This document shows, one piece after another, positions 5,126 to 61,919 of a DNA stretch of 64,000 nucleotides (position 1 is the stretch's first letter; each line of letters opens with the position of its first letter). This stretch comes from Escherichia coli (lineage in GTDB: Bacteria; Pseudomonadota; Gammaproteobacteria; Enterobacterales; Enterobacteriaceae). Both the position numbers and the translations under genes were made by a program. Below the pieces are notes generated by a model. It was not told where the DNA came from and made no database searches. It saw nothing but the letters and a program-made list of their open reading frames with translations. The DNA is taken from NCBI RefSeq assembly GCF_013122565.1, contig NZ_CP053258.1; one strand, written 5' to 3'.

Positions 5126-5233
5126 AGAAACCTCCTGAGAGCACACTGAAAAGAATAGGAGAGGGGGCGGGTAAAATCTATGTGGTACAGAGGCAACGAT
5201 ATTCCCGCTGTGGGCCACAGCGGGAATGAGGGA

Positions 5234-12706: not shown

Positions 12707-12806
<100 letters not shown>

Positions 12807-17710: not shown

Positions 17711-17721
17711 TAAGAAAAAAT

Positions 17722-17750
17722 CCGCCCCGACGATTCGACAGTCGGGGCGG
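17722..17750 (+). terminator. Possible terminator hairpin after tcyN
   Basis: Inverted repeat ccgccccgac...gtcggggcgg directly after the tcyN stop; no clear T-run on the + strand, so weak. Confidence 0.35.
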
Positions 17751-17939
17751 AACGCCATTTCAAGCGTGATAAAACTGTTTAACAAATCAGCATAACTCAT
17801 TAATAACATAAGAGAATGCGATGGCTTGCAAAAGTAATTCATTGTCTGAATAATATAAATTATATATAAATCTTATTTATGTGATAGTTTGAATTATCAT
17901 TATAAATGATACTCACTCTCAGGGGCGTTGCGGTTTACT

Positions 17940-26051: not shown

Positions 26052-26222
26052 GATAGTGCTCCACAAAGGTTATATTTGTTGCTGTGGCGTCACTATAATT
26101 TGTTATTTTATTATTTGCAAAAGGTAAAATATAAACTTCAATTATTAAAAATACGAATGGGAATAAAACGCATTACCGCTATTTATTTAATCAGCGAAGA
26201 TCCCCCTCGCTGATTAAAACAT

Positions 26223-26896: not shown

Positions 26897-26898
26897 CA

Positions 26899-26927
26899 AA
26901 AAACCTGCTCCGGCAGGTTTTTTTGTG
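26899..26927 (+). terminator. Rho-independent terminator after azuC
   Basis: aaaaaacctgctccggcaggttttttt: hairpin flanked by an A-run and a T-run. Confidence 0.7.
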
Positions 26928-28640: not shown

Positions 28641-29630
28641 ATGCACAAATTTACTAAAGCCCTGGCAGCCATTGGTCTGGCAGCCGTTATGTCACAATCC
28701 GCTATGGCGGAGAACCTGAAGCTCGGTTTCCTGGTGAAGCAACCGGAAGAGCCGTGGTTCCAGACCGAATGGAAGTTTGCCGATAAAGCCGGGAAGGATA
28801 TAGGGTTTGAGGTTATTAAGATTGCCGTGCCGGATGGCGAAAAAACATTGAACGCGATCGACAGCCTGGCTGCCAGTGGCGCAAAAGGTTTCGTTATTTG
28901 TACTCCGGACCCGAAACTCGGCTCTGCCATCGTGGCGAAAGCGCGTGGCTACGATATGAAAGTCATTGCCGTGGATGACCAGTTTGTTAACGCCAAAGGT
29001 AAGCCAATGGATACCGTTCCGTTGGTGATGATGGCTGCGACCAAAATTGGCGAACGTCAGGGCCAGGAACTGTATAAAGAGATGCAGAAACGGGGCTGGG
29101 ATGTCAAAGAAAGCGCGGTGATGGCGATTACCTCCAACGAACTGGATACGGCTCGTCGCCGTACTACGGGGTCTATGGATGCGCTGAAAGCTGCCGGATT
29201 CCCGGAAAAACAAATTTATCAGGTACCTACCAAATCTAACGACATCCCGGGGGCATTTGACGCTGCCAACTCAATGCTGGTTCAACATCCGGAAGTTAAA
29301 CATTGGCTGATCGTCGGTATGAACGACAGCACCGTACTGGGCGGCGTACGTGCAACCGAAGGTCAGGGCTTTAAAGCGGCCGATATCATCGGTATCGGTA
29401 TTAACGGTGTGGACGCAGTAAGCGAACTGTCTAAGGCACAGGCAACCGGCTTCTACGGTTCCCTGCTGCCAAGCCCGGATGTACATGGTTATAAGTCCAG
29501 CGAAATGCTTTACAACTGGGTAGCAAAAGGTGTTGAACCGACCAAATTCACCGAAGTTACCGACGTGGTGCTGATCACGCGTGACAACTTTAAAGAAGAA
29601 CTGGAGAAAAAAGGTTTAGGCGGTAAGTAA
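28641..29630 (+). CDS. araF: L-arabinose ABC transporter periplasmic binding protein AraF
   Basis: ORF 28641..29630, 329 aa, MHKFTKALAAIGLAAVMSQSAMAENLKLGFLVKQPEEPWF... Confidence 0.95.
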   Translation: MHKFTKALAAIGLAAVMSQSAMAENLKLGFLVKQPEEPWFQTEWKFADKAGKDIGFEVIKIAVPDGEKTLNAIDSLAASGAKGFVICTPDPKLGSAIVAKARGYDMKVIAVDDQFVNAKGKPMDTVPLVMMAATKIGERQGQELYKEMQKRGWDVKESAVMAITSNELDTARRRTTGSMDALKAAGFPEKQIYQVPTKSNDIPGAFDAANSMLVQHPEVKHWLIVGMNDSTVLGGVRATEGQGFKAADIIGIGINGVDAVSELSKAQATGFYGSLLPSPDVHGYKSSEMLYNWVAKGVEPTKFTEVTDVVLITRDNFKEELEKKGLGGK

Positions 29631-29645
29631 TTTGCCGGAAAAATT

Positions 29646-29668
29646 CCCCTCTGCATGATGCAGAGGGG
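29646..29668 (+). other. Intercistronic palindromic hairpin between araF and araG
   Basis: cccctctgcatgatgcagagggg is a near-perfect palindrome right after the araF stop; likely mRNA stability or partial termination element. Confidence 0.45.
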
Positions 29669-29699
29669 GTGTGAACGACCAGTGATTCACGGAGACGTT

Positions 29700-31214
29700 A
29701 TGCAACAGTCTACCCCGTATCTCTCATTTCGCGGCATCGGTAAAACGTTTCCCGGCGTTAAGGCGCTGACGGATATTAGTTTTGACTGCTATGCCGGTCA
29801 GGTTCATGCGTTGATGGGTGAAAATGGCGCAGGAAAATCAACTCTCTTAAAAATCCTCAGCGGCAACTATGCGCCAACCACGGGTTCTGTAGTGATTAAT
29901 GGGCAGGAAATGTCCTTTTCCGACACGACCGCAGCACTTAACGCGGGCGTGGCGATTATTTACCAGGAACTGCATCTCGTGCCGGAAATGACCGTCGCGG
30001 AAAACATCTATCTCGGCCAGCTGCCGCATAAAGGCGGCATTGTGAATCGCTCATTGCTGAATTATGAGGCGGGTTTACAACTTAAACATCTTGGTATGGA
30101 TATTGACCCGGACACGCCGCTGAAATATCTCTCCATTGGTCAGTGGCAGATGGTTGAAATCGCCAAAGCGCTGGCGCGTAACGCCAAAATTATCGCCTTT
30201 GATGAGCCAACCAGCTCCCTCTCTGCCCGTGAAATCGACAATCTTTTCCGCGTTATTCGTGAACTGCGAAAAGAGGGGCGGGTGATCTTATACGTTTCTC
30301 ACCGTATGGAAGAAATATTTGCCCTCAGCGATGCCATCACTGTCTTTAAAGATGGACGTTATGTCAAAACCTTTACCGATATGCAGCAGGTTGACCACGA
30401 CGCGCTGGTGCAGGCGATGGTCGGGCGCGACATTGGCGATATCTACGGCTGGCAACCGCGTAGTTATGGCGAGGAGCGCCTGCGTCTTGATGCTGTGAAA
30501 GCACCAGGCGTGCGTACGCCAATAAGTCTGGCGGTTCGCAGTGGTGAAATTGTTGGGCTGTTTGGTCTGGTAGGGGCGGGGCGTAGCGAATTAATGAAAG
30601 GCATGTTTGGCGGGACGCAAATAACCGCCGGTCAGGTTTATATCGACCAACAGCCGATCGATATTCGTAAACCGAGCCACGCCATTGCCGCAGGCATGAT
30701 GCTCTGCCCGGAAGATCGCAAAGCGGAAGGCATTATTCCCGTGCACTCCGTTCGCGACAATATCAACATCAGTGCCAGACGTAAACATGTGCTCGGCGGT
30801 TGTGTAATCAACAACGGTTGGGAAGAAAACAATGCCGATCACCACATTCGTTCTCTCAACATCAAAACGCCGGGCGCTGAGCAACTGATCATGAATCTCT
30901 CAGGCGGAAATCAGCAAAAAGCCATTCTGGGCCGCTGGTTATCGGAAGAGATGAAGGTCATTTTGCTGGATGAACCTACGCGCGGCATTGATGTTGGTGC
31001 TAAGCATGAAATTTACAACGTGATTTATGCGCTGGCGGCGCAGGGTGTGGCGGTGCTGTTTGCCTCCAGCGACTTACCTGAAGTCCTCGGCGTTGCCGAC
31101 CGGATTGTGGTGATGCGGGAAGGTGAAATCGCCGGTGAATTGTTACACGAGCAGGCAGATGAGCGTCAGGCACTGAGCCTTGCGATGCCTAAAGTCAGCC
31201 AGGCAGTTGCCTGA
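29700..31214 (+). CDS. araG: L-arabinose ABC transporter ATP-binding protein AraG
   Basis: ORF 29655..31214 trimmed to [23 protein letters not shown]... at 29700, 504 aa; duplicated ABC cassette (GENGAGKST ... LSGGNQQK). Confidence 0.9.
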
Positions 31215-31228
31215 GTAAGGAGAGTATG

Positions 31229-34581
<3,353 letters not shown>

Positions 34582-61820: not shown

Positions 61821-61919
61821 GCCTGATGCGCTATGCTTATCAGGCCTACATAGTCCCTGCAATATATTGAATTAGCAAGGTTTTGTAGGCCGGATAAGGC
61901 GTTCACGCCGCATCCGGCA
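61821..61919. repeat. BIME: two inverted REP units
   Basis: gcctgatgcgctatgcttatcaggcctaca (61821..61850) and tgtaggccggataaggcgttcacgccgcatccggca (61884..61919); near-identical to the pair downstream of fliC. Confidence 0.8.

Follow-up and report, generated by a model that had tools for sequence, protein, structure and literature searches.

A conserved stem-loop between araF and araG and its probable role as a 3' protective structure of the araF mRNA

The textbook case of a 3' protective structure is given by the REP stem-loops of the malE-malF spacer, which were linked to differential operon decay by Newbury et al. 1987, as summarised in PMC5927463. Once the transcript has been cut downstream, PNPase and RNase II are stopped by the 3' structure in this spacer, and the binding-protein segment is the stabilised one in malEFG and in four other ABC operons (Dar & Sorek 2018, PMC5927463). 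A second point of reference is mglB, whose hairpin has, 5 nt past the stem, a strong sense 3' end classed as 'primary' (147,960 and 77,439 reads) in the Term-seq data of Adams et al. 2021 (PMC7815308). The mgl operon is expressed in LB, and mglB was used here as a positive control. All five of the other spacers between a binding-protein gene and the next gene that were checked in K-12 carry stem-loops, so that with araF-araG the count is six of six. Unique GC-rich hairpins are found in xylF-xylG and mglB-mglA, and REPs in malE-malF, ytfQ-ytfR and alsB-alsA.

The araFGH operon was analysed within a stretch of 64,000 nucleotides of Escherichia coli DNA (the window, to which all positions refer unless MG1655 is named). 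The gene order is ftnB - araF - araG - araH - otsBA. A 401-nt query from the window showed 99.8% identity to the annotated E. coli chromosome of a near-identical RefSeq record, and the window is identical to MG1655 across 109 nt around the hairpin; exact sequence matching, together with the MG1655 annotation, served to convert coordinates between the two. The periplasmic arabinose-binding protein is encoded on the plus strand by araF (28641-29630, from the ORF and the RefSeq annotation of near-identical E. coli records), which is the cistron proposed here as the stabilised one and ends with a TAA stop codon at 29628-29630. An untranslated spacer of 69 nt (29631-29699) contains the hairpin and is followed on the same strand by the ATPase gene araG (29700-31214; NCBIfam AraG equivalog, 939 bits, and RefSeq) and by the permease gene araH, the last of the operon (31226-32215; NCBIfam AraH equivalog, 593 bits, and RefSeq). 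A terminator-like hairpin past araH (32253-32280; ACAGCCAGCCGCCACAACGGTTGGCTGT and TCTTCATT, with a weak T tail) is probably the operon end.

In RefSeq and NCBIfam, araG begins with the ATG at 29700. Its Shine-Dalgarno sequence GGAG lies at 29691-29694, and the araG initiation region is clear of the hairpin. A longer reading frame (29655-31214), which begins at an ATG in the hairpin loop at 29655 and would extend araG in frame by 15 codons (29655-29699), was set aside as an artefact because this ATG is missing from the loops of other Escherichia and the RefSeq/NCBIfam start is 29700. The araG initiation region itself, TCACGGAGACGTTATG (29685-29702), is nearly invariant among genera while the remainder of the spacer is variable, and its conservation exceeds what a Shine-Dalgarno sequence alone would need.

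The hairpin is formed by CCCCTCTGCAT-g-ATGCAGAGGGG at 29646-29668. A sequence-only reading of the window had described a perfect palindrome at this place, and both the sequence and the inverted repeat are as it described them: cccctctgcatgatgcagagggg has 11-nt arms with 1 nt between them. Folded as RNA, the 23-mer forms a GC-rich 10-bp stem (29646-29655 paired with 29659-29668) that closes a 3-nt loop (29656-29658), with a free energy of -18.2 kcal/mol for the 23-mer alone. The whole 69-nt spacer has a minimum free energy (MFE) of -23.7 kcal/mol and a z-score of -2.48 against dinucleotide shuffles. The stem starts 15 nt past the araF stop, whose last base is 29630, and ends 31 nt short of the araG ATG at 29700. 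The palindrome had been said to follow the araF stop directly and to precede araG; its place before araG holds, and the word 'directly' is not strictly right. The hairpin lies outside any conserved ORF.

Perfect inverted repeats with arms of at least 11 nt and loops of up to 9 nt occur five times in the window, compared with 0.15 +/- 0.36 in 40 dinucleotide shuffles, an excess of about 30-fold. The pattern CCCCTCTGC-N3-9-GCAGAGGGG occurs once in the window where none is expected, and the hairpin is no chance match. The longest perfect palindrome of the window, ATTCCCGCTGTGG-g-CCACAGCGGGAAT (5201-5227, 13-nt arms), has no obvious T-run on either side, and perfect inverted repeats with 11-12-nt arms and 9-nt loops are found at 17721-17751 and 26186-26218. 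At the araF-araG hairpin, Rfam 15 gave no covariance-model match even at E <= 10. The sole Rfam hit, Tombus_3_IV inside araF, had an E-value of 0.05, was under the gathering score and was put down to chance. A CRP or AraC operator at TGTGAACGACCAGTGATTCAC was rejected by eye, as the spacing and the second half-site are unlike TGTGA-N6-TCACA, and an RNase III site was rejected because textbook knowledge makes a 10-bp stem too short for that enzyme.

To place the hairpin in its family, species-representative genomes of the Enterobacteriaceae and Erwiniaceae were scanned, yielding 80 loci with AraF orthologues. A spacer from the araF stop to the araG ATG could be taken from 77 of these loci, which together with the window gave 78 spacers of 53-152 nt (median 71). 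In a Raoultella sp. (L063), Enterobacter sp. JUb54 (L075) and Klebsiella indica (L079), the AraF homologue was not directly followed by a recognisable AraG N-terminus, and these loci may have a different gene order or a paralogue. A stable hairpin is present in all 78 spacers, with a best single-hairpin free energy of -13.6 to -32.8 kcal/mol, and the z-score of the whole-spacer MFE has a median of -2.57 and is below -2 in 77% of them. The 5' arm has 55 distinct sequences among the 78 spacers. The position of the stem is much the same throughout: in the 58 spacers with a perfect core stem beating shuffles, it starts a median of 14 nt (IQR 14-15) past the araF stop and ends a median of 32 nt before the araG ATG.

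Within Escherichia the conserved core is a 9-bp stem (29646-29654 paired with 29660-29668 in the window), whose arms CCCCTCTGC and GCAGAGGGG are invariant. The loop varies in both length and sequence, being ATTAT, GTTAT, TGTGT or CTTTATTGT in other Escherichia, and the perfect 23-nt palindrome is particular to E. coli of the window's type. As the loops differ and the stem is fixed, what is conserved is the stem, and the perfect palindrome is incidental. Among 5426 complete E. coli genomes, a 49-nt region with the hairpin was found in 5416 and was identical in 4779; it is single-copy, with a median of one place per genome in those 5416.

An alignment made with MAFFT put the Escherichia 3' arm one column off register and left RNAalifold with only 4 pairs, and for this reason 45 spacers were realigned with a covariance model. 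In this alignment, which is itself fitted to the structure, two-sided (compensatory) changes are seen at all 9 stem pairs. Pairing is retained in 89.9% of the paired cells of the 45 spacers, compared with 76.8% after shuffling, a procedure that ignores phylogeny (none of 500 shuffles reached the observed value), and with at most 65% when the register is slid. The hairpin is a real RNA structure kept by evolution.

REP-type elements occupy the araF-araG slot in seven Citrobacter loci; they are of the same kind as the REPs of the window itself, and their density in these seven spacers is about 150x that in the rest of the loci. They were recognised by half-site matching (CCKGATR ... YATCMGG), since a fixed-spacing consensus probe missed even known REPs. 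The same half-sites have no match in the Escherichia spacer, and the E. coli hairpin bears neither of the marks by which REP/BIME elements were recognised, namely the consensus half-sites and many copies per genome. The window has two pairs of REPs, at 12708-12804 and 61822-61917, arranged as CCTGATGCG...CTTATCAGG followed by CCGGATAAGGCG...GCCGCATCCGG. In Buttiauxella and Cedecea the spacers contain different long palindromes, possibly repeats particular to each genus. With many unique stems, and with REPs dropped into the same place, the cross-species series means that selection keeps the slot and not the sequence.

Because a palindrome folds on both strands, we looked for asymmetries between them. 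The sense strand has GAAAAAUU before the stem and GUGUGAAC (29669-29676) after it, the latter with 2 U in 8 and thus not U-rich. With these flanks the terminator scan calls the minus strand only (hairpin plus AATTTTT), and, without a U-tract on the ara-sense strand, the hairpin is not a canonical sense terminator. Across the family, at least 5 T in the 8 nt past the core stem are found in 2 of the 78 spacers, and at least 4 T in 8 of them. All Escherichia have the A-rich flank upstream of the stem, as do three Citrobacter sp. loci with the Escherichia stem (L020, L027 and L029); it is missing from Enterobacter, Leclercia and similar genera. As T-tails are rare and the A-tract is confined to Escherichia and these three loci, the stem alone is the family-wide conserved feature.

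Three further comparisons bear on the strand that is under selection. The alignment has 27 G.U cells in the sense orientation against 14 A.C cells, which correspond to wobbles of the antisense RNA, a marginal difference (p 0.06). In 64 of 78 species the sense orientation gives the more stable spacer RNA (Wilcoxon p 7e-7, without correction for relatedness). With variant C29651T, the one variant sampled (strain 116), the sense RNA still has a U.G pair at this place and folds with -15.6 kcal/mol, while the antisense RNA has an A.C mismatch and folds with -11.8 kcal/mol. These comparisons favour, only modestly, selection acting on the sense RNA structure.

On the minus strand the hairpin reads CCCCTCTGCATCATGCAGAGGGG AATTTTT, with 10 pairs of which 7 are G-C, and resembles an intrinsic terminator with an AAUUUUU tail (29639-29645, AAAAATT on the plus strand). 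Two published 3'-end datasets place the 3' end of an antisense RNA at 29638-29640 on this strand (MG1655 1985129-1985131, the + strand of MG1655). In the Term-seq data of Adams et al. 2021 (PMC7815308, Supplementary file 1) a 3' end at MG1655 1985131(+) is classed as antisense to araF, with read averages of 1565 in LB at OD 0.4, 1137 in LB at OD 2.0 and 1414 in M63 glucose, values close to the lowest in the table. Each site in that file is given as a string of 61 nt, and the SgrS row shows that position 51 is the mapped nucleotide, here the C directly after GGGGAAUUUUU. In the TRS paper (PMC10687069, Supplementary Data 2 and 3) a terminus cluster labelled 'araG.araF.IGR' spans 1985126-1985135(+) and peaks at 1985129 and 1985131; it is seen in re-analysed datasets as well as in RNA that the authors themselves took from LB and minimal medium. 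From these minus-strand 3' ends we conclude that in Escherichia the hairpin is used in vivo as a terminator, probably an intrinsic one, of a weak antisense RNA, which would come out of araG and is of low abundance. The 3'-end datasets are from cells in LB or glucose/minimal media, where araFGH is off, and in these uninduced cells the antisense ends are the only 3' ends mapped at the araF hairpin, a feature of the site that had been missed from the sequence.

Possible sources of the antisense RNA are weak sigma-70-like promoter matches on the minus strand at about 29766, 30725 and 30750 (near MG1655 1985003, 1984044 and 1984019), the first of which would give an antisense RNA of about 128 nt over the araG start region; the Cappable-seq TSS tables gave no support at the three candidate starts. 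A second antisense 3' end lies inside araG at 30602-30604 on the minus strand (MG1655 1984165-1984167 +). A Rho-dependent region antisense to araF is placed inside the gene at about 29315 (MG1655 1985454 +), some 320 nt past the hairpin, an indication that part of the antisense transcription runs through the hairpin; the hairpin site itself is absent from the part of the Rho table that was covered. The decay tables of Dar & Sorek have no araFGH entry, and SMRT-Cappable-seq has none for the araF-araG locus. In the literature searched, the antisense terminator within the operon appears in published supplementary tables and no main-text discussion of it was found.

Compared with malE-malF, the araF hairpin is likewise a stable stem-loop right 3' of a first cistron that codes for an ABC importer's periplasmic binding protein, and in the seven Citrobacter loci the slot holds REPs themselves. 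It differs in that the Escherichia hairpin is a single-copy unique sequence rather than a REP, and has a single 10-bp stem where malE-malF has tandem REPs. Two features of the malE-malF type are found at araF: a stable stem-loop in untranslated RNA just 3' of the candidate stabilised cistron, and pairing that is kept while the sequence changes, the latter in an alignment fitted to the model and against shuffles made without phylogeny. The mglB-mglA and xylF-xylG spacers share with araF-araG the order of binding protein, hairpin and ATPase, GC-rich stems of 9-10 bp and spacer lengths of 60-77 nt; their hairpins carry U-rich tails (UUAUUGUAU and GAUUUCUCU), whereas that of araF has no such tail and has an A-tract upstream. 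The minus strand at araF agrees with an intrinsic terminator in its GC-rich 10-bp stem, 3-nt loop, AAUUUUU tail and 3' end at the end of the U-run. Unlike a usual intrinsic terminator, it has no U-tract on the sense strand, and the terminator orientation is antisense and inside an operon, not at a gene end. One palindrome serving both strands is also the principle of bidirectional terminators, of which the window has an example directly 3' of the azuC stop (26898-26924; AAAAAACCTGC-tccg-GCAGGTTTTTTT), a symmetrical arrangement of A-tract, stem and T-tract. A strong 3' terminus at MG1655 1987842 (-), about window position 26927, lies near the azuC terminator (PMC10687069). In contrast to this symmetrical element the araF hairpin is one-sided, its A/U tract serving only the antisense strand.

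We propose, with a probability of roughly 0.6, that the araFGH stem-loop is a 3' protective structure of the malE type, which stabilises an araF-only mRNA and thereby gives more AraF than AraG and AraH, possibly with slight, weak termination as well. The lack of a U-tract on the sense strand makes a protective cap, rather than a classic terminator, most likely. The constant gap of 14-15 nt suggests that a ribosome terminating at the araF stop would just fail to reach the stem. A cut downstream in the polycistronic RNA, or an occasional stop of the polymerase, would expose a 3' end, and 3'-to-5' exonucleases would be halted at the stem, leaving a long-lived araF-only message. From such a message more binding protein than ATPase and permease would be made; the blocking of exonucleases, the greater stability of the araF mRNA and the excess of AraF are the parts of the proposal that we infer. 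On the opposite strand in Escherichia, the hairpin with its AAUUUUU serves as the terminator, probably intrinsic, of the low-abundance antisense RNA.

In 1987 Horazdovsky and Hogg reportedly described, from Northern/S1 work, a full-length araFGH mRNA together with an araF-only mRNA of about 1.1 kb that was the more abundant of the two. The 3' end of this shorter mRNA was reportedly mapped to the dyad symmetry of the araF-araG hairpin. The sequence-only reading had offered two functions for the hairpin. Protection of the 3' end of an araF-only message is partly supported, by the conserved structure, its fixed distance from the stop, the compensatory changes, the Citrobacter REPs, the five of five K-12 operons and the sense 3' end of mglB. 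Attenuation of read-through came out as the weaker option, since E. coli has no sense U-tract and tails of at least 5 T are confined to two of 78 spacers.

The data cannot separate weak termination from processing and stabilisation. If the hairpin were a partial terminator on the sense strand, a fraction of the polymerases would stop at it, araG and araH would be transcribed less, and the araF-only RNA would be a primary transcript and not a decay product. We think this unlikely, though it agrees with the strong GC-rich stem in an untranslated spacer, with the U-rich tails of the paralogous mglB and xylF hairpins and the 'primary' 3' end of the former, and with the T-rich tails of a few species (two Atlantibacter loci, L023 and L026, together with L040 and L046). 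Against it, the E. coli tail GUGUGAAC is poor in U and the consensus scan made no call on the plus strand, the scarcity of T-tails indicates that the family keeps the stem and not the tail, and the REPs that take its place are known as stabilisers and not as efficient terminators (textbook knowledge; PMC5927463). That the antisense function is what selection acts on in Escherichia, with the terminator halting antisense transcription from araG and araH ahead of araF and the sense hairpin as a by-product, seems to us improbable. It would account for the minus-strand hairpin with its AAUUUUU, for 3' ends that coincide with the last position of the U-run in three conditions and again in samples from another laboratory, and for the A-tract, which is retained in all six Escherichia lineages sampled. 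The reads of about 1100-1600 are, however, near the low end of the table, both the wobble pairs and the C29651T variant speak for the sense RNA, and the Rho-dependent region near 29315 suggests some passage beyond the hairpin. Nor can an antisense role explain the conservation across the family, as most genera keep the hairpin in place without an antisense U-tract.

Two other explanations carry still less weight. The hairpin, or alternative pairings in the spacer, might alter ribosome access to araG or uncouple its translation from that of araF; the MFE fold of the spacer does have a second weak helix that reaches the araG AUG, and the distance from stem to ATG (median 32 nt) is fairly constant. 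Such control is very improbable, since the hairpin ends 22 nt short of the Shine-Dalgarno sequence and does not overlap it, and the second helix is missing from the centroid and has a 5' strand that is unconserved outside Escherichia. A perfect 23-bp palindrome also has the classic shape of an operator, and the element might act as DNA, either bound by a dimeric protein or belonging to a repeat family, or might be a chance palindrome. We give this hardly any credence: pairing is kept while sequence is not, the loop varies in length and sequence within Escherichia, there is one copy per genome, Rfam gives no match and the chance expectation is about 0.

The protective reading of the sense strand can be extended to a dual use of the element, which we regard as a doubtful idea. 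The hairpin would be strand-asymmetric, capping the araF mRNA in the sense orientation and acting in the antisense orientation as a one-way terminator that confines antisense transcription to araG and araH and shields araF. If so, both activities would push toward more binding protein than transporter, and transcriptional interference or cleavage of double-stranded RNA would also be confined to araG and araH. In a sharper version of this idea, an antisense RNA of about 130 nt, from about 29766 to 29638, would cover the araG start and trigger the cut that makes the araF-only mRNA.

We regard the finding as already known in substance, since the kind of element is textbook, the antisense 3' end stands in published tables and the araF-only message was reportedly described in 1987; on the araF-araG hairpin itself, nothing was found in the literature searched. 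What is mildly new is the family-wide covariation series with its substitution by REPs, and an operon-internal hairpin that doubles as a one-way antisense terminator in Escherichia. The finding has little import beyond araFGH, where it adds another case of an ABC-importer operon that would use an intercistronic stem-loop to tune how much binding protein is made relative to membrane components.
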